From Dictyostelium discoideum (taxonomy: Eukaryota), in contig CM000152.2 in assembly GCA_000004695.1 (NCBI GenBank), positions 2,912,001 to 2,976,000 of the forward strand: a DNA stretch of 64,000 bases, given 5' to 3'. Below are positions 8,556-30,905 of the stretch, one piece after another. Every line of letters starts with the position of its first letter. Position 1 is the first letter of the stretch. A program made the translations under genes and the position numbers. The notes under the pieces were generated by a model. The model had not been told where the DNA came from, did no database searches, and saw only the letters and a program-made list of their open reading frames with translations.

Positions 8556-8934
8556 AAATAAAAAAAAATAAAAAAAAATAAAAAAAAAATTAAATTAAAA
8601 TATATTTTAAAAAAAAAAAAAGAAAAAAAAAAAAATAAAAAAAAAAAAAAATTTAAAATAAAAAAAAATTAAAATAAATTAAAATAAAAAAAAAAAAAAA
8701 AAATCAAAATATTATTTTTTTAATATATATAATGGCCATTATTCATATTAAATCTTAATATAAATTGTATTAATCCTATTTTTTTTTTTAATGGGATTCT
8801 GAAATTGGGTTATTATTAATTTTGAAACAAAATAATTTTATTTTTAATTTTAAAACAAAATAATTTTATTTAAACAATTTTTAATATATTTTTTTTTTTT
8901 TTTACAATTATAATTGGAAATGATTGGTCATCAA

Positions 8935-16829: not shown

Positions 16830-17120
16830 TTTTTTTTAAAAGTCAACATCAATTTATCAAAAATACCTTTAGAATAATCAACAACACAATCTCCAATTGT
16901 TGGCTAACATTTTTCTAATTGACACAATAGCCCAAAACCAAGAATTCCTATTGTAATTTTAGGTAGACATTTCAATGGAATATTAGTACAACCAATTTCT
17001 TTACCGCATTTATCAATTGTACATAAATTATTATAATCACAGGTAATATCACCAATACACTGATTTAAATTTTTAATATTATCATCATTAATTCCTAAAT
17101 TAATATTATAAATTTATTTA
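16830..17120 (-). pseudogene. Fragment from the 3' end of a Psi-like PA14/Dicty_CTDC gene, carrying an in-frame stop
   Basis: Reverse strand reads NLCTIDKCGKEIGCTNIPLKCLPKITIGILGFGLLCQLEKC, then TAG, then PTIGDCVVDYS. It is about 90 percent identical to 20161..20320. Confidence 0.55.
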
Positions 17121-17297
17121 ATAATTTTTTTATTTTTTTTATTTTTTTTAATTTTAAAAAATTCACTATATCCATAATTTGATTCTTCACTATATTTTTT
17201 TTTTTAAAAAAATTATTAAAACTATTATAAAAAATAACTTCATTTTAAAAATAAGATTAATAAAACAATTAATATACTTAATAATAATAAAAAAAAA

Positions 17298-17355
<58 letters not shown>

Positions 17356-17650
17356 TCCCATATTAATTTTACTCCACCCCAAATAATTGTCAATAATGTT
17401 TATATTACTTTGACCCACCAAACCCACCACCAACAACACCACCACCACTCAAAATTACAACATAGTTTTTGTTATTTGGTTATTTTATTGGAATATTAAA
17501 TTTCCGTTTATTTTAATTTTCAAAATCAATTTTTTTTTTTTTTTTTTCAAATAATTAAAATTAAATAGATTAATAAAAAATAAAAATAATGTAAGTTCAC
17601 AATTTTTTTATTAATTATTACTATCATTTATTTTTTATTTTTATTTTTTT

Positions 17651-17840
17651 AGATTTTATTTGTAATGATATACTAAATGATCAAGAAAACCACCAGAGTA
17701 ATCAATAACACAATCTCCACTAGTTGGCTCACATTTTTCTAATTGACAAATAAATCCAAGATCTAATAAACCAATAGTTTTCTTTGGAGGACATTTTCTA
17801 GTTGAAAGAAAAAAAAGTTTACACTTTCCAGTGGATTAAA
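17651..17840 (-). pseudogene. Truncated 3'-terminal fragment (about 190 bp) of a gene-B-like Psi copy
   Basis: Near-identical to the last roughly 190 bp of the 20544.. exon, diverging after ccagtggatt. Confidence 0.55.
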
Positions 17841-18051
17841 TTGTAAAGCACTAAAATGTGTAAATGATAATAAAAATAAAAATAAAAATAATAATAAAAA
17901 TAAAAATAAAAATAAAAATAAAAATAATAATAATAATAATAATTAATAAAAAAAATGAAAGTTCAAAATTTTTTGGAATTGTATATTTTTTTAAAAAATA
18001 TTTAATTATTATTATTTATTGTGAAGTAAATTAATTTGAAAAAAATATTTT

Positions 18052-19684
18052 TTAGCAAAGTAAAATTTCTAAAAGTCCTTTTAAAAAATCAGGAACGCAA
18101 TTACCAGAATATGGTTCACATTTTTCATTTTGACAAATAATACCAATTCCTAATAAATCAATAGCTTTCTTTGGTGGACATTTTATTTCTGGTAATGGTT
18201 CACATTTTCCATTTTTAACGTTACAAGAATTTGGTTTACATTTATTTGAATTATCACATTCTATCGGGGTATGTGTACAATAATTGTTAATTTTTGAACC
18301 TGCTGGAGTTTTATTTGATGGGAATGCGCAAGCATCAATTGTACATGGATTATTATCATTACAATCTATTTCAGGTACACATTGTGGTGGTGTTGTTGGT
18401 GGTTCTGTTGGTGGTTTTGTTGGTGGTTCTGTTGGTGGTCTTTTTGGTGGTTCTGTTGGTGGTTCTGTTGGTGATTCTGTTGGTGGTCTTGTTGGTGGTT
18501 CTGTTGGTGGTCTTGTTGGTGGTTCTGTTGGTGGTGGTCTTGTTGGTGGTTCTGTTGGTGGTGGTCTTGTTGGTGGTTCTGTTGGTGGTGGCCTTGTTGG
18601 TGGTCTTGTTGGTGGTCTTGTTGGTGGTCTTGTTGGTGGTTTTGTTGGTGGTTTTGTTGGTGGTTTTGTTGGTGGTCTTGTTGGTGGTGGACAAACATCA
18701 TCATTAACCCCTGGAATATTATCTTTTTTTTTTTTTTTTTTCAAATTAATCAATATTTTAAAATTTTAAATTTTCATAACAGAAATTCCATTTTTGGAAA
18801 AAAATAATACATACTGCATTGAAATACAAATGGTGTATCAAATTGGAGATAAACAAATGGTTTATTTTGATCAAATCTTTGGCACATAAAGAAATCAAAT
18901 GGATAAGTTTTGCCAACTTCAAGATTTAAGTTTTTATGATTAACTGCGGAATCAGGATTACTAGTACCTGCAAATTCAAATGCCAATTTACCATCGATAA
19001 ATACTGATAAATCACCTCCTGCATACAATGAAAAGAAATCAGATGTTTTTTTACTTACTTGATATTTGAATTTATAATGTCCTTCAATGCACCCTATAAT
19101 TATTAATATAAAAAAAAAAAAAAAAAAAAATATTAATAATTAATATTTTTTAAATATTATTTTTGATAAAAGCTTACAATATCTATTCTCACCAGATACA
19201 CCTTCATTCCAACCTTTTCCATTAATTGGAGTAAATGGTTTTAGAGTAACAGCATATTTAACTTTTCCATTTGAATAATGGACTGGATTAAAAGTGAATG
19301 TATTGATTACAGTTTTTGATATTCCAGGTTTTCCCATAAAAGATTGATCATATTCTTTTTGGTTGGAAATAAAATTAAATTTTCTATTTCCACAACTATC
19401 AAATTAAAAAAAAAAAAAAAATTAAAAATTAACAATAATTATTATTATTATTAAATAATTATTACATACCAATATTCAGGTTTATGAGTTTTTGGATTTA
19501 ATAGTTTTTTAACTAAACCAGTTGATTTGATTGATTTATCATTTGAATATTTAGTATAGTTGATATTAAATCCAGGTTGCGATGGCAAAAAGTCATAAAC
19601 TTTATATGGAACATTGAATTTTTGGGAAAAGGACGAACATATAAATAAACTTAAAAATAAAATTAAAATTAAAACTTTTTTCAT
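18052..19684 (-). CDS. Secreted PA14-domain plus Dicty_CTDC cysteine-repeat protein with a long PTxPPT linker (Psi-factor-like copy A). Exons 19470..19684, 19178..19395, 18815..19093, 18052..18722
   Basis: Signal peptide MKKVLILILFLSLFICSSFSQ. PA14-like exons ...NPVHYSNGKVKYAVTLKPFTPINGKGWNEGVSGENRYC and YAGGDLSVFIDGKLAFEFAGTSNPDS...FDFFMCQRFD. Last exon NPCTIDAC...CDNSNKCKPNSCNVKNGKCEP has CTDC-type Cys spacing. Donors GTATGT, GTAAGC, GTATGT. Confidence 0.75.
18387..18688. repeat. 12-bp tandem coding repeat (ggtggtcttgtt / ggtggttctgtt), about 25 units, encoding the (PTxPPT)n linker of copy A
   Basis: The repeat is visible directly in the sequence. It translates as PTRPPTKPPTEPPT on the minus strand, so it is a coding repeat, not a CRISPR array. 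Confidence 0.9.
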
Positions 19685-20160
19685 TTTTTTAGGTTTAATT
19701 TGTAGGAAAGTGAAAAAAAAAATTTTCTTTTTTTTTTTTTTTTTTTTTATTCCCTTTTTTTTTTTTTTTTTTTTAATTACATTTTTTTTTTTTTTTTTTT
19801 TTGGTAGTGTTTACAAATACTAAACTTTTCTTCTATTCTTTTTAGATTTAAACCCAGTTAAAATATATTTTTTAAATTGGAAAAAAAATTTAGTATTCTC
19901 ATTATTATAATTATAATTGTATGAATAAATATTATAACTGTTATCAACTAATAATAGGTTAGATTTTTTTTTTTTTTTTTTTCTTAAAAAAAAAAAAGTA
20001 TTAATAGTTAATTTGAGAATAATTAATAAACAAACATAATTATTACTAAAAACTAAAAAAACTTCCTGATTTCAAATTAAAAAAACTCTTAAAATCTGTT
20101 TATTCAAGATTCTTTTATTAAAAAATTAATTTTTTAATTTTATTTTTTTAATAAGTCCAA

Positions 20161-20320
20161 AACCAAGAATTCCTATTTTAATTTAAGATAGACATTTCAA
20201 TGGAATATTAGTACAACCAATTTCTTTATCACATTTATCAATTGTACATAAATTATTTCATCACAAGTAATATCATAAATACACATTAAATTTTTAATAT
20301 TATCATTATTTACTAAATAA
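20161..20320 (-). pseudogene. Decayed 3' fragment of a Psi-like gene, paralogous to 16830..17120
   Basis: Same CTIDKC/NDNIKNL-encoding sequence, with frame breaks. Confidence 0.5.
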
Positions 20321-20543
20321 TATTAAAAAATTAAAACTGTTATAAAAAATAAAATTAATAAAACAATTAATGCAGTGTATAGGAAAATAATAATAATAAT
20401 AATATCACAAAATATTTTTTTACTCCACCCCCCAAATAATTGCCAATAATATTTATTTTTCTTTAACCCACCACCACTCAAAATTACAACATAATTTTTG
20501 TATATTATTTCTAACAAACAAGTTTTTTTTTTTTTTTTAGGTT

Positions 20544-22232
20544 TTATTTGTCATGACATACTAAATGATCAAGAAAACCACCAGAGTAATCAATAACACA
20601 ATCTCCACTAGTCGGCTCACATTTTTCTAATTGACAAATAAATCCAAGACCTAATAAACCAATAGTTTTCTTTGGAGGACACTTTCTAGTTGAAAAGAGT
20701 TTACACTTTCCAGTGGATTTATCACATCCAACAGATTTACATAAATCTGGATCATTACATAAAACTGGTGAATGTGTACAACCAATTTCTATATCACATT
20801 TATCAATTGTACAAGGATTAAAATCATCACATGAAATTGGTTCAGTTTTACAAATTCCATCACTTTTATCACATCCTAATGATTTAGTACATTTATTATC
20901 GGGTGGGCAAATAGTATAGTTATTAGTACACCCAATATTTGGATAACATTTATCAATTGTACCTAGATTACCATCATCACATGAAATTGGTTCAGTTTTA
21001 CAAATTCCATCAATTTGATCACATCCTAATGATTTAAAACATTTATTTTTATTATCAACATCATTATTAGAACATTTAATTGGAGTATGTGTACAATATT
21101 CAGTAACATTTGCATTTTTTGGCAATTTAGATAAATCAGATGGACAAGAATCAATTGTACATAAATTATTATCATTACAAGTTGTCATATTGTTACAATC
21201 TGGTAATAGTGGTGGTGGTGGTGGACAAACATCATCATTAACTCCTGGAATATTATCTTTTTTTTTTTTATAAAAAAAAAAAAAACAATTAAAATTAAAA
21301 TAAAAAAATAAAATAAATATTTTTTTAAAAATAATATTTATAATAATAATACATACTACATTCAAAAACAAATGGTGTTTTAAAAAGAGCATATTTATAT
21401 GGTTTATATTCATCAAATCTTTGACATGAAAAGAAATCAAATGTATATGTTTCACCATTTGTTAAATTTAAACATTTATGATCTATACTTATTTCAGGAT
21501 CACTTATACCTGAAAATTCCAATACCAATTTACCATCAATAAATACTGAATATTCACCACCAATATAAAAAGAAAAATAATCAGATGTTTTTTTCTTTTT
21601 TATATTATATTTGAATTTATAATGACCTTCCATACACCCTTTTTAAGTATGTAAAAAATAAAAATAAATAAATAATATAATTTAAAAATGATATATTGTT
21701 AAAATTAATATCATTACTTACAAAATAGGTTATTTTCTTGTTCACCTTCATTCCAACCCTTTCCATTAATCGGGTAAAATGGATTAATAAAGATTTGATA
21801 AAGAACAATTCCGTTTTCATAGTAAGTGGGATAAAATTTAAATTGGTCAATAATATTCTTTGTTGAATCTTCATTTGAAATGAATGATTGATCATAAACA
21901 TTTTGATTATCAATAAATTTAAATTTACAATCTTCACAACTAAAACTATTTAAATAATTTAGTGTTTTTTATAAAATAATAAAAATAAAATAAATAAAAA
22001 ATTAATACACAAACACACTTACCAATATTCAGGTTTATTAAAAAAAGGATTTAAATTTTGTTTAACTAAACCATAATTTCCTATTGAATTTGATGAACAT
22101 TGAGTATAGTTAATATTAAATCCAGGTTGAGAAGATTTTAAAATCATATACCTTATATGGAGCAAAAAAAGATGTTTCACAATAACAATTTTTTAATATA
22201 GTTAAAATTACTACAATTAAACTGATTTTCAT
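20544..22232 (-). CDS. Secreted PA14-domain plus multi-Dicty_CTDC-repeat protein (Psi-factor-like copy B). Four exons, roughly 22020..22232, 21700..21940, 21350..21630, 20544..21262
   Basis: Signal peptide MKISLIVVILTILKNCYC. PA14 exons ...YYENGIVLYQIFINPFYPINGKGWNEGEQ and EGHYKFKYNIKKKKTSDYFSFYIGGEYSVFIDGKLVLEF. The 304-aa last exon carries more than five CxxxxCTIDKC-type repeats. Exon ends are approximate. Confidence 0.7.
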
Positions 22233-22620
22233 TTTAATTAATATTTTAAAATAATATAATAATTAATTTACTTAAATAATTATTTTATCCATTTATTTTT
22301 TTTTCTTTTTTTTTTTTTTTTTAATAAAATTAAGAAAGAATAAATTGTAAAAGATTAATTTATTGTAATTTTAATCATCATATTTAATTTTTTAAAAATA
22401 CTTAATTATGTAATATTTAATAAAAAGAAGTTGTAATTTTTTTAAAATCGGAAATATACCACACTAAAATGTGTGAATAATAATAATTATAATTAATTTT
22501 ATAAAATGAAAGTTCACAATTTTTCCAATTGTTTGTTTTTTCTATTTTAAAAAACTATTAAATTATTATTTTTTATTATTGGTTGTAAAGTAAATGATTA
22601 AATAAAAAAATAAATTAATT

Positions 22621-23932
22621 TCAACAAAGTAATTTATCTAAAAGTCCTTTAGAAGAATCAGGAATGCAATTACCAGAAGATGGTTCACACATTTCAGGCT
22701 GACAACCAACACCAATTCCTAATAAATCAATTGTTTTCTTTGGTGGACATTTTATTTCTGGTAATTGTTCGCATTTTCCATTTTTAACATTACAAGAATT
22801 TGGTTTACATTTATTTGAATTATCGCATTCTATCAGAGTATGTGTACAATAACTCTCAAAACTTGAACCTACAGGAATTTGAAATGATGGGGTGGACAGG
22901 TATCAATTGTACATAGATTATTACCATTACAATCTTTTTCAGGTACGCATTGTGGTGGACAAACATCATCATTAACCCCTGGAATATTATCTTTTTTTTT
23001 TTATTTTTTTTCAAATTAATCAATATTTTATAATTTTTCTTAGTATTTTTTTTTGAAAAAAATAATAATACTTACTGCATTGAAATACAAATGGTGTATC
23101 AAATTGGAGATAAACAAATGGTTTATTTTGATCAAATCTTTGGCACATAAAGAAATCAAATGGATAGGTTTTGCCAACTTCAAGATTTAAGTTTTTATGA
23201 TTTACTGCGGAATCAGGATTACCAGTACCTGCAAATTCAAATGCCAATTTACCATCGATAAATGCTGATATATCACCTCCTGCACACAATGAAAAGAAAT
23301 AAGAAGTTTTTTTACTCACTTGATATTTGAATTTATAATGTCCTTCAATGCACCCTATAATTATTAATATAAAAAAAAAAAAAAATAAAAAAAAAAAAAA
23401 AATATTAATAATTAATATTTTTTAAATATTATTTTTGATAAAAGCTTACAATATCTATTCTCACCAGATACACCTTCATTCCAACGTTTTCCTTTAATTG
23501 GAGTAAATGGTTTTAGAGTAACAACATATTTAACTTTTCCATTTGAATAATGGACTGGATTAAAAGTGAATGTATTGATTACATCTTTTGATAATCCAGG
23601 AGTTCTAATAAACGATTGATCATATTTTTCTTCATTGGAAATAAAATTAAATTTTTCATTTGCACAACTATTAACATTGGAAAAAAAATTAATAATTAAA
23701 TAATTATTACATACCAATATTCAGGTTTATGAGTGTTTGGATTTAATAATTTTTTAACTAAACCAGTTGATTTGATTGATTTATCATTTGAGTATTTAGT
23801 ATAGTTGATATTAAATCCAGGTTGCGATGGTAAAAGTCATAAACTTTATATGGAACATAGAATTTTTGGGAAAAGCACGAACCTATAAATAAACTTAAAA
23901 ATATAAATAAATTTTTTTTCATTTTTTTAGTT
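22621..23932 (-). pseudogene. Pseudogene copy (A') of Psi-like gene A, with at least two 1-nt frameshifts and no PTxPPT linker
   Basis: It is nearly identical to copy A exon by exon. In the signal-peptide exon gatggtaaaagtcataaac replaces gatggcaaaaagtcataaac, a 1-nt loss. In the last exon ...CTIDTCPPHHFKFL then TAG replaces ...CTIDACAFPSNKTPAGSKIN, another 1-nt loss. No long ORF survives over 22630..23000. Confidence 0.6.
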
Positions 23933-24199
23933 TTTGTTTGATTTTTTAGGAAATTTAAATTGATTCTTTTTTTTTTATTTTTTTTTTTAAGATTTTTTTT
24001 TTTTTTATTTTTTTTTTTATAATTTTTTTTTTTTACTTTTTTTTATTTTAAAAAAAAACAACCCAAATACTAGACAGTTTAGATTTATATCCAGTTAAAA
24101 ATTATTTTTAATATTTGAAAAATATTTTAGTATTGTCATTATTATAATTATTATTTTAAATTGGGAATAAATTTTTAATATTGTTATTAATGAGATTGG

Positions 24200-24233
<34 letters not shown>

Positions 24234-25405
24234 AATATTTAATAATAATTAGATTTAGAATTATAAATAAAAAAAATAATTACTAAAAATAAATTAAGAA
24301 AAAAAATAAATAAATTAATAAAACTATTTTTATCAAATTCTCAATTTTTTGAAACATTTGGATGAATTTTAAAATAAAAAAAAAAAAAAACACTGAAATC
24401 AAAATTTTTTTTTTTCTGTTAGGCCCGTAATTAGTTCACTATTAAAATCTGTTTACCCAAGATTTTTTATTTTGAAATTATTTTTTAAAAAAAAAAAAAA
24501 AAGAAAAAAAAAAAAAAATTAAAGTAAAAAAGTGTGAGTGATGTTAAAATAAACACACACACACATTAACTCACAAAAACAACACACCCCATCTAAAAAT
24601 AAATTTTTTGAAATTAATAATAATTTATTTTTATTTTATTTTTAATTATTATTATTATTATTATTTTTTTTTTTTTTTTTTTTAAGTGTTGTATAAAACA
24701 AAATTTTATTTTATAATTTTTCAAAAAATTAATTTACAATTATAATTTTATACTTGGTTGTAAAAAAAAAAATTACATTCTCACATATACTCACTCACAC
24801 AACACCTAAATAAAATAATTAACTTTATCCCATCATATTCGAAATTATTATCTCTCTTTCCTTCAAACTACACACCCTCTGTTTTTTTTATTTAATTTAT
24901 TTTAATTTTATTTTATTTTATTTAATTTATTTTATTTTATTTTATTTTTTCATTCAATTAAAATAATTTTCAATCTATTAGAGTTCAAATAATTTTATTT
25001 TTTAATTAATAAAACTATTCATAATTTTTTTTTTTTTTTTTTTTTTTTATGCTATTTAAATATTAAAATTTCAATTTTTTTAATAATATAAATATAGACA
25101 AATACCACTCACATTTGATTAAAAATTAAAAAAATAAAAATAATATATTAGATAGGTTTAAATAATCATTCTCATAATAAATTTCATTTTTTTTAAAAAA
25201 TTATAAATCAATTTAATTATTTTAAATTATTTAAATCATAAAAAAAAAAAAATAAAAAAAAAAATATATTATTTATTTATTTATTTTTTCATTTATTTAT
25301 TTATTTATTCATTTCCCTCTTTTAAACAATTTATTTATAAAAACTATATTAAAATTATATTAAATTAAATTTTTAATAAAAAAAAAAAAAAAAAAGAAAT
25401 AAAAA

Positions 25406-28089: not shown

Positions 28090-28646
28090 TTTTTTAGATT
28101 TTTTTTTTTTTTTTTTTTTTGTTTGTAAACTGTTTTAAAAAAAAAAAATAAAAAAAAAAAAAACGCTGTTTAAATAACAAAAAATGATTTTTTTTTTTAT
28201 TTTTTTTAAAAAAAAAAAATTAAAAAAAAGATTTTTTTTATTCGCTGGAAATTTCTTTTGCAATCTTAAAAAATAATTTATTTTTTTTTTTTTTCTGTAA
28301 ACAGATTCTGAAGTGTGACAGAATTCTTTTTAACTTTTTTTTTTTTTTTTACAACCAAATAATTTTTAATTTTTATTTTTGCAGATAAAAAAGTATTTTA
28401 AAATTTAATTTAGAAAAAAAAAAATAAAAAATAAAAAAAAAAAAATAAAAAAAAAAATAAGAATTCTATCCACCTTCAGAATCTTCTTTATTTAATAAAA
28501 TTTAGTATTTTATTTTATAAAAAAATGTTTTTTTTTTTTCTTAAACAAAATAATAATCATAAAAAAAACCATTTTTTTTTTTTGAATTAGATCTGTTTTT
28601 AAAAAAACCGCCAATTTTGGTTGTTTTTGAAAAAAAATATAAAAAA

Positions 28647-28717
28647 GCGTATGTGGTCTAGTGGTATGATGCATCCCTGCCACGGATGCGAACTGGGTTC
28701 GATTCCCAGCATACGCA
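28647..28717 (+). tRNA. tRNA-Gly, anticodon GCC, 71 nt, CCA not encoded
   Basis: Acceptor stem GCGTATG/CATACGC. Anticodon stem CATCC/GGATG with loop CTGCCAC. T arm CTGGG-TTCGATT-CCCAG. A box TGGTCTAGTGG; B box GGTTCGATTCC. A T-run follows. Confidence 0.85.
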
Positions 28718-28749
28718 CAATTTTTTAAGGTACCCCCAATAAAATCACA

Positions 28750-28759
28750 GGTTCGATTC
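28750..28759 (+). promoter_or_regulatory. External B box (ex-B box, GGTTCGATTC), 33 bp downstream of the tRNA 3' end
   Basis: A second perfect B-box consensus lies outside the tRNA body. This arrangement is known for many Dictyostelium tRNA genes. Confidence 0.5.
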
Positions 28760-28812
28760 TTTTTTCCTCTACACCGATTTAGAAAAAAAAAAAAAGATTC
28801 TTTTTTCCTCTA
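28755..28812. mobile_element. 17-bp perfect direct repeat (gattcttttttcctcta x2) flanking a 24-bp segment that ends in A13; candidate footprint of a severely 5'-truncated poly(A) retroelement insertion at the ex-B box
   Basis: The two copies sit at 28755-28771 and 28796-28812. Between them is caccgatttag followed by 13 A. Confidence 0.25.
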
Positions 28813-29099
28813 ATTAATCATGATCAACTGGTAGTTTTTAAAATTAATTAATTCTTTTGCTTTTTTAATTAATAATGATTAGTATATTTGATTCTTTTTT
28901 ATTGAATCACCAAAGTTTGATGAATTATAAGTTGAATTAATAAAAATTTATGGATAAATTTCTTTTTTACCTCCAAATGATTATGTGGTAAAAAACTCTT
29001 ATTATCAACACTTCTTAACAAATGCTAACCATTTTAGATTATATTGAAAAGGCAAAAAATTTAAAATTAACTCTTTTGAAAGATCCAAGTTATCTCCTT

Positions 29100-30000
29100 A
29101 AATAAATAATAAAACAATGAAAATTAACTTGAAAATCTTATTGTATTCCAGGAGCTAGGGTAATCATATAGATTGAATTATTTTGAATATTATTAAAATT
29201 ATGATTATTATGCAAGGTTCCAGTTATTGGTGTACCATTATGTGATAAAGTATTGTATTTGTTAAAATCACCTACAGTTAATTGTTGTGATCCAAATGAA
29301 ATAATTGATATTTGATCGACTGTACTAATAATATGCTGAAATACAACTAACTTTAAAATTGCCACTTGTTGATACATCTCTATTATAAATTTGAATTAAA
29401 ATTACTATATAAAATAATGGTATTTCAAAGTAATGAATACATTTTTGAAATGATTGATCATTTGTTTTTGATTTAAAATTTACTTCATGTATTAATAATT
29501 ATCATTGGAGTTAATTGAAGTTGTCTTAATTTACTTAATGAACAATCTGGTTGTTGGCATGAATTTGCCTTATCAATAATAACCAATCCATTTAATAAAT
29601 ATGAAAAATCCGTGAATGTACCTTTTTTTAACATCAACATGCTTCTCCAATACAAATCCATTATAATCAACAAAAAGTTGCATATCCTAAACATAAAAAA
29701 AAAAAAAAAATTTAATATTAAATTTAATATTTAAATTTTTCTGTTGGAATTTTTAAAATTATAATAATACATTTTTAATGAAATTTAATTGATTTTCTAT
29801 TTTTCCAAAATTTGAAATATTGACAAATATATTTCCATCAAATTTAATGAGTTGAAGTTGTTGAATCCCATTTTTTAATCTTTTTCAACTCTTTAGTATA
29901 TGGTGCAAAATCATTGTTTCCCTTTTTGATTAATGTCCAAAGCTAGCCATTTTTTTTGGCTCTTCAAATCCAATAGATAATATCATTATTATTATTATTT
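29100..30000 (-). pseudogene. Stop-riddled remnant of coding sequence (FNIP/LRR-like degenerate motifs) downstream of the tRNA; possible decayed gene or element relic
   Basis: G+C content is higher than in the intergenic DNA. Fragments such as FGSQQLTVGDFNKYNTL and LIKKGNNDFAPYTKELKK are split across frames. Confidence 0.2.
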
Positions 30001-30905
30001 TAGATTTGAAAAAATGTTAAAATATATAAAAATATAAAAATATTATGTGTACGCAAAAAATTAAACTCTTATTTATTGTGATTGAATATGATTGATTTTC
30101 TTTCATATTTTAAAAACAATAATTGGACTATAAACGATAACTATTTTTTGATTGATAATAATCCATATCTTTAATATACTAAACATAGATGTAATATTAA
30201 TATTATTCGTTTTTTAAAAAAAAAATTGATAAAAGTTGGTGTGCAATAGAACAACTATTATATAATGTTGAATCTTGAATGAATAATGAAAAATAAATAA
30301 AAAAATTAATTAAAAAAAAAAGAAAAATTATATTAAAATAAAAATAAAAAAATTATCCCCTTTTTTTTTTTAAATATAAATAAACATATGTATTTTTTTT
30401 ATTTTTTTAAGCACTAATTTAATTTTTGGTGCTTTTTTTGAAATTGTTGTGATATACGATTTAATTTTAATTAATTTTTTTTTTTTTTTTGTTTGTGGAA
30501 TAATAAAATAAAAAAAAAAATTGATTTTAAAATTCTATTACTTATATAAAATAGCTATCACCATACAAAAAAAAAAACTAGAAATGGAATTGAATTGAAG
30601 TACATCCTTTTTAATTTTTGATTCAATTTTTTAGATTTTAAAACTTCAATATATTAATATGATATATAAGTAATTATTTTTTTTAAGATATTTCCTTGTC
30701 ATTCTTTGATTTAATAAAAAATAATTTCTAATAATAAGAATTACAAAAAACAAACAAAAATATCAAAACTTAAATATCAAAAGACTGTGTTTAAATAAAA
30801 AAAGAAAACTAATTATTTGAGATTATAGAGATTAAATTAAACAATGGTCACAAATTATTTAAATTTTTAAATTCAATAAATATGTTCTTTTATTTTTTAC
30901 TTTTT

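Follow-up and report, generated by a model that had tools for sequence, protein, structure and literature searches.

It is general knowledge of target-primed reverse transcription that severely 5'-truncated or poly(A)-only insertions of mammalian LINE-1 combine a 10-20 bp duplication, a 3' poly(A) and extreme truncation, and that such copies are dead on arrival. The closest described elements in Dictyostelium discoideum are those of the TRE3 group (TRE3-A to -D), which are found 40-150 bp downstream of tRNA genes, share their transcriptional orientation and are able to use the external B box (ex-B) that lies in this neighbourhood (PMC5911963). TRE3 copies carry a target-site duplication and end in poly(A) (PMC5911963; PMC5006619), and the length of TRE poly(A) tails varies (PMC5006619). 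Integrated non-LTR copies are in general marked by deletions at the 5' end, by additional 5' nucleotides without a template and by duplications that vary; for TRE5-A specifically, both 5' deletions and extra nucleotides at the 5' junction have been reported (PMC5391098; PMC3159450). Unlike that of TRE5-A, the integration of TRE3 has been little studied by experiment (PMC5006619).

How does a 24-bp insert beside a D. discoideum tRNA gene compare with these elements? The 64-kb stretch of D. discoideum DNA analysed here (the window) is AT-rich, with about 20% G+C, and its sole tRNA gene is a tRNA-Gly(GCC) at 28647-28718 on the + strand (ARAGORN; Rfam RF00005, 63.6 bits). An Rfam search over 28300-29400 found nothing besides this tRNA. 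Pattern matching placed the internal B box, GGTTCGATTCC, at 28696-28706 and an ex-B box, GGTTCGATTCT, at 28750-28760, both on the + strand; a run of six T residues at 28721-28726 (+ strand) is the probable Pol III terminator. The sequence GATTCTTTTTTCCTCTA is present in two + strand copies, at 28755-28771 and 28796-28812, which are identical at 17 of 17 positions. Between them lie 24 bp, made up of 11 unique bases, caccgatttag (28772-28782), and a tract of 13 A residues (A13, 28783-28795) that abuts the downstream copy, so that duplicated unit and spacer together amount to 41 bp relative to the single-copy state. The repeat stops at its edges, where ggttc stands against aaaaa on the left and cacc against atta on the right. 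These coordinates and letters are exactly those of the initial annotation, which was also right in placing the start of the duplication inside the ex-B box: copy 1 begins at base 6 of this box. Relative to the 3' end of the tRNA gene, the duplication starts 36 bp and the insert 53 bp downstream.

Across the whole window, direct repeats that are exact, non-simple, 15 bp or longer and no more than 120 bp apart form 8 pairs at 5 loci, compared with 0.32 expected per 64 kb in second-order Markov simulations. The other four loci are two coding tandem repeats, one 28-bp AT-rich duplication and one pair of 15-mers 117 bp apart. Among these close direct repeats, a poly(A) spacer is found only in the pair at 28755-28812. 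The 64-kb window contains no third match to GATTCTTTTTTCCTCTA at two or fewer mismatches (0.03 expected from shuffles).

Target-primed reverse transcription is recognised by just such a combination: a 17-bp duplication, a short unique 5' part and an A13 tract that abuts the downstream repeat. Tail and tRNA gene are both on the + strand, with the poly(A) distal, and an insert 53 bp downstream in the orientation of the tRNA fits the published TRE3 rule (PMC5911963). Abortive target-primed reverse transcription by a TRE3-type element is the probable origin of the insert, the link to this element being drawn from position and orientation only. Most likely, the event is a new, unannotated and dead-on-arrival instance of a well-known process that is ordinary in the D. 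discoideum genome. Described TRE3 copies differ from this insert, which has only 24 bp, contains neither ORF1/ORF2 nor a recognisable 3' UTR, and lies closer to the tRNA gene: its insertion point, 36-53 bp away, is nearer than the typical distance of ~100 bp, and this counts against the assignment, although it falls within the published 40-150 bp.

How might such an insert have formed? TRE3-type machinery, placed on the tRNA-Gly gene by its Pol III/TFIIIC marks, would nick the bottom strand between 28754 and 28755, in the ex-B box. The free 3'-OH at the nick would prime reverse transcription of a polyadenylated RNA, and synthesis would halt past the A13 tail and at most 11 nt; alternatively, the 11 nt may have been added untemplated at the 5' junction. 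The top strand would be cut 17 bp downstream, between 28771 and 28772 of the empty site, and fill-in would yield the 17-bp target-site duplication. Both nick positions are inferred from the way in which target-primed reverse transcription proceeds. The primer end at the inferred nick (...AAGAATC-3') is not T-rich and would not anneal to poly(A), which counts against this scheme. TRE targeting is thought to be guided by proteins. In contrast to LINE-1 insertions, the target would here be set by proximity to a Pol III gene and not by a TTTT/AA consensus.

Was the insert gained in this lineage or lost in others? The window encodes D. discoideum serine carboxypeptidase S10 family member 2; the AX4 protein and relatives 99% identical to it were recovered, which identifies the window as D. 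discoideum of AX4 type. With this neighbouring gene as an anchor, the locus was retrieved from seven public assemblies. These represent an AX4-type D. discoideum (L005, GCA_054883475.1), two further D. discoideum strains (L003, GCA_054859355.1; L004, GCA_054859385.1), D. cf. discoideum (L001, GCA_054859205.1), D. firmibasis (L002, GCA_036169595.1), D. dimigraforme (L006, GCA_054859025.1) and D. citrinum (L007, GCA_054859325.1). The tRNA-Gly gene adjoins the carboxypeptidase gene in 7/7 loci. Identity of the carboxypeptidase-gene DNA to the window is 98.4% in L003 and L004 and 97.6% in L001, giving the tree ((window/L005,(L003,L004)),L001) with the other species further out. Across 21.9 kb, the AX4-type locus L005 shares 99.735% identity with the window (7 mismatches, 14 gap openings) and has the same insert structure, A13 included; since this is an independent assembly with an identical structure, the insert is no assembly artefact, and an artefact of cloning is unlikely.

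In L003 (9310-9342, - strand) the site reads ggttc-GATTCTATTTTCTTACATCTA-atttatc, and in L004 (9332-9364, - strand) it reads ggttc-GATTCTATTTTATTACCTCTA-atttatc. Each strain holds one homologue of the 17-mer, and both are without caccgatttag and without an A-run at the site. The atttatc that follows the single copy is matched by attaatc after copy 2 in the window (28796-28812, + strand). The ex-B homologue of L001, aaaatcacagtttccattctgttttcatacca, is likewise single-copy (8865-8896) and without a poly(A) insert like that of the window; it lies ~510 bp from the tRNA gene, displaced by other insertions. Empty sites of the kind anticipated by the initial annotation, with one 17-mer homologue and no poly(A), are thus found in both strains and in the outgroup L001.

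Global alignments of the site made with MAFFT were misleading, owing to large indels and an inversion, and explicit hypothesis scoring was used instead. Against L003, the window scores 26 unedited and 33.5 after removal of the 41 bp (60 matches, 7 mismatches); against L004, the corresponding scores are 22 and 36.5 (59 matches, 9 mismatches). In an anchored flank test, for which 5000 composition-matched 40-mers served as the comparison set, the flank past copy 2 resembles the flank past the single copy (P about 0.02), while the flank past copy 1 does not resemble it (P about 0.9). Homology to the empty sites on the right soon breaks off at a 267-bp lineage-specific block and an inverted hairpin, which leaves the flank evidence only moderately significant.

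Could the duplication reflect replication slippage or tandem duplication? The AT-rich intergenic DNA of Dictyostelium is prone to indels, and D. citrinum has a tandem duplication of an A-run unit near the same tRNA gene. However, the 24-bp filler is missing from every single-copy locus, and therefore was not duplicated from local sequence; nor is it repeated after copy 2. Neither the filler nor caccgatttag has a further copy in the window, in the seven orthologous loci or in 389 kb of fetched DNA, which rules out both slippage and local templated synthesis. A related proposal is that an arrangement of repeat, filler and repeat was ancestral and was lost elsewhere by recombination between the repeats. 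On the tree given above, this would need two independent precise deletions, and it leaves unexplained how the two copies could match each other perfectly when both have diverged from their orthologues. Together, these readings are extremely improbable, and simple slippage, which the initial annotation had itself named as the competing explanation, is excluded by the missing filler.

Several substitutions and indels set the two AX4 copies of the 17-mer apart from the orthologous single copies, and the flanking intergenic DNA is only ~84% identical between these strains. Copies that are identical to each other yet diverged from their orthologues imply that the insertion is younger than the split of the strains. 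On these sequence comparisons, the insertion is young and derived, and a single event in the AX4 lineage is the parsimonious history. Of the target-primed insertion that the initial annotation had put forward, the duplication, the tail and the derived state are borne out, as are its orientation and position; the enzyme and the RNA template, like the nick positions, are deduced.

What was copied at this site? The 11 bases caccgatttag may stem from the very 3' terminus of the copied RNA, whether of TRE3 or another, or may be untemplated nucleotides of the 5' junction. A metagenome scan with CACCGATTTAG followed by A9 gave 14 matches, none of them related: they are repeats from other organisms or isolated chance matches. 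Six actin-anchored loci from D. discoideum and D. cf. discoideum (L008-L013, 127 kb) contain no tRNA genes and no gene with a Pfam match to a reverse transcriptase (RT) or endonuclease. There is also no RT-bearing ORF in the window, whose ten largest ORFs are all cellular (RCC1/RhoGAP, APC5, ComC/EGF, MIF4G, FNIP, MATH-ankyrin, kinase and RING), and exact-protein look-ups for a 936-aa ankyrin/BTB ORF and a 69-aa ORF yielded nothing. ORF1 and ORF2 of TRE3 (APE endonuclease, RT, zinc finger) are absent from the 24-bp insert, which is at most a terminal remnant and not a copy of an element.

The preferred explanation has a sub-variant that differs in the source of the RNA alone. In this case the same TRE3-type mechanism would have used a cellular polyadenylated mRNA or another RNA in trans, or would have copied only the tail, the 11 non-templated nucleotides completing an orphan poly(A). 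No resemblance to the 11-mer is seen in the poly(A)-ended fragments found near the same tRNA gene in other lineages, which read …aatatcta(A)n, atatttatt(A)n and …tttatttatatc(A)n, and extra non-templated nucleotides are frequent at the 5' junctions of TRE5-A (PMC5391098); both points favour this sub-variant. Conversely, 11 nucleotides would be long for a non-templated addition, and TRE5-A retrotransposition requires the element's own 3' C-module (PMC3159450), suggesting cis-preference in the family. A non-TRE template or an orphan poly(A) is a possible but tentative version of the event.

Are other insertions of this type found beside the same tRNA gene? Both strands of 344 kb of dictyostelid DNA (the window and 13 loci) were scanned for A-runs of at least 10 nt with a repeat of upstream sequence within 2 nt. 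Duplications of at least 14 bp were found in three independent cases, all of them within ~90 bp of this tRNA-Gly gene; the remaining matches are 11-bp repeats of low information. One case is the insert described here. The second, in D. firmibasis (L002:8408-8776, - strand), is an insert of 340 bp with A21 and the 14-bp duplication gtaaggatattata, which starts 87 bp downstream of tRNA-Gly in tRNA orientation, as the TRE3 rule prescribes. It consists of two ~115-bp units with A-box-like (tagcgtagtgg) and B-box-like (ggttcgagtc) motifs and has no Rfam match. These motifs make it a candidate SINE of tRNA origin; in the literature searched, no account of SINEs in dictyostelids was found.

The third case, in D. 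dimigraforme (L006:9072-9517, + strand), is an element of 418 bp with A22 and the 14-bp duplication tggacaactctaat. With its 5' end 47 bp upstream of tRNA-Gly and an orientation opposite to that of the tRNA, it follows the published TRE5 geometry. B-box-like motifs occur close to its 5' end; it is far below protein-coding length and has no Rfam match, and its structure marks it as a candidate non-autonomous retroposon. The elements from D. firmibasis and D. dimigraforme are similar to the mini-insert in their duplications and poly(A) tails (A21-A22) and in obeying the TRE3/TRE5 placement rules; they differ from it in length (340-418 bp) and in their A-/B-box-like motifs, which make them candidate SINEs, and have no sequence in common with the 24-bp insert.

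In D. cf. discoideum, the space between tRNA-Gly and the displaced ex-B homologue is occupied by ~480 bp of poly(A)-ended fragments (L001:8897-9405, - strand). These fragments, atatttatt-A18, …aatatcta-A37 and …aatatctata-A14, are all in tRNA orientation, and a single 3' end is represented by two of them, as related copies. The presence of poly(A) inserts beside tRNA-Gly in several species indicates that this flank is a recurrent target of retro-insertion, and the mini-insert follows the same rules.

This recurrence bears on an explanation without any retroelement, namely that a staggered double-strand break near the ex-B box left 17-nt 5' overhangs, which were filled in and end-joined around 24 bp of captured or polymerase-made filler. 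A filler between two copies of a repeat is formally compatible with such repair, and no source element has been identified. However, filler capture would not be expected to place an A13 tract against the downstream repeat in tRNA orientation, there is no local template for the filler, and 3/3 strong structures of duplication plus poly(A) in the 344 kb adjoin a tRNA gene and obey the orientation rules of TRE3 and TRE5. Break repair is thus a very unlikely origin of the insert.

A different junction at the same site is found in a further strain. Exact look-up of a 79-aa ORF (29138-29377) returned one Logan contig of 932 bp (L028, from SRR26869246), which matches window positions 28811-29712 at 99.1% identity. 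To the left of 28811 (L028:906-932) it has tttatttatatc followed by A15, where the window has A13 followed by gattcttttttcctc. The first 15 nt of copy 2 are missing from L028, and the contig ends at the A15 junction region. Because L028 is ~99% identical to the window elsewhere, its 12-mer is not an orthologue of the 17-mer. On the simplest reading, L028 carries a different poly(A)-tailed insertion, with a downstream duplication that starts from taattaatc, 2 bp off the second-strand nick inferred for AX4. Such a junction would add to the signs of a hot spot at this tRNA gene. The allele leaves open a more complex shared history, in which one older element was followed by later deletions.

Such a history could take the form of an older and longer TRE3 insertion with a 17-bp duplication, which was cut down to 24 bp by an internal deletion in AX4 and in a different manner in the SRR26869246 strain. 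The A15 of L028 stands at nearly the same place, preceded by a different 12-mer and with the first 15 nt of copy 2 missing, as this proposal would have it. Nevertheless, several deletions would be needed, with ends exactly at the boundaries of the A-run and the duplication, while both copies of the duplication were perfectly preserved; moreover, the 11-mer and the 12-mer of L028 have nothing in common. The remnant of an older TRE3 is accordingly judged quite improbable; the L028 allele also stands as a point against the preferred reading, an abortive TRE3-type insertion in the AX4/NC4-type lineage.

What are the consequences of the insert for the tRNA gene? The ex-B box is conserved in L003, L004, L006 and L007 and degenerate in L001. 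In the window it is still intact because copy 1 of the duplication retains its 3' half. The T6 terminator lies upstream of the insert, so the tRNA transcript should be unaffected. Having no coding capacity and sparing the tRNA gene along with its terminator and the ex-B box, the insert is probably neutral; a 41-bp scar of this kind matters little by itself. It would nevertheless provide a footprint, at base-pair resolution, of a cut by a TRE3-type endonuclease, with a first nick in the ex-B box and a second 17 bp downstream, and, as a lineage marker, it tells AX4-type strains apart from other isolates of D. discoideum.

The insert may also belong to a hidden class of orphan poly(A) scars, if TRE3-type machinery repeatedly nicks in or next to the ex-B box and often aborts near the tail or copies RNAs other than those of TRE. 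The A15 junction in L028, 2 bp away in a strain of 99% identity, is compatible with such a class, and so are the poly(A) fragments of D. cf. discoideum; its existence is nonetheless rather doubtful. Were it true, the flanks of Dictyostelium tRNA genes would carry many unannotated and strain-polymorphic micro-insertions, which would preserve a trace of recent TRE activity, exact to the base pair, and might duplicate or erode ex-B boxes. If micro-insertions were common at the 418 tRNA genes of AX4, they would constitute an unannotated record of recent TRE3 activity.

Does the DNA downstream of the insert belong to the same event? The initial annotation had suggested that the stop-ridden sequence at 28850-30300 might be related debris. 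This suggestion is not supported for most of the stretch: from ~29080 the DNA is syntenic with L003 and L004 (83-87% identity) and in part with L001, all of which lack the mini-insert, and has no similarity to RT or endonuclease. Pfam searches with the downstream ORFs gave no match, only two sub-threshold ones, neither of which is an RT or endonuclease. A coding-like region interrupted by stops is seen at 29138-29990 (- strand), with ORFs of, for example, 79 and 69 aa, and similar interruptions occur in L003 and L004. A gene model of 123 aa is called at the matching place in L003, and the region is probably a decayed small gene.

Directly after the insert, the AX4-type assemblies and L028 alone carry a 267-bp AT-rich block at 28813-29079, which L001-L004, L006 and L007 lack and of which the 389 kb contain no further copy. 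Since this block lies outside the 17-bp duplication and predates the split of AX4 and L028, it reflects a separate and older event, possibly a fragment of a transposable element or something else. The idea that 28813-29079 is a second insert flanked by a duplication (aattaattcttttg and aattaactcttttg, 13/14) was rejected, as equally good chance repeats are common in this AT-rich stretch. The block is followed at 29075-29135 by a hairpin-forming segment of ~55 bp, with inverted arms of 12-17 nt and a 21-nt loop. This segment is inverted relative to L003 and L004, being 92% identical to their reverse complement, and looks like a hairpin flip or a small inversion. A forward similarity to L003 (gtagtttt…) was given less weight once the inverted copy at 29075-29135 proved to be the real orthologue of the hairpin segment in L003.

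Two further features of these loci may be recorded. In D. citrinum, the tandem duplication of the A-run-containing unit near the tRNA is genuine, and relatively G+C-rich non-genic sequence extends from ~10 bp upstream of tRNA-Gly (L007:7222-7700); it resembles the terminus of a further tRNA-targeted element, whose position suggests the DGLT-A or NLTR type. Elsewhere in the window, 16900-24300 contains diverged tandem segmental duplicates with 82-89% identity, for example 18684-20061 and 22952-24303, which span neighbouring genes, including a gene with a Dicty_CTDC domain in the orthologous loci.
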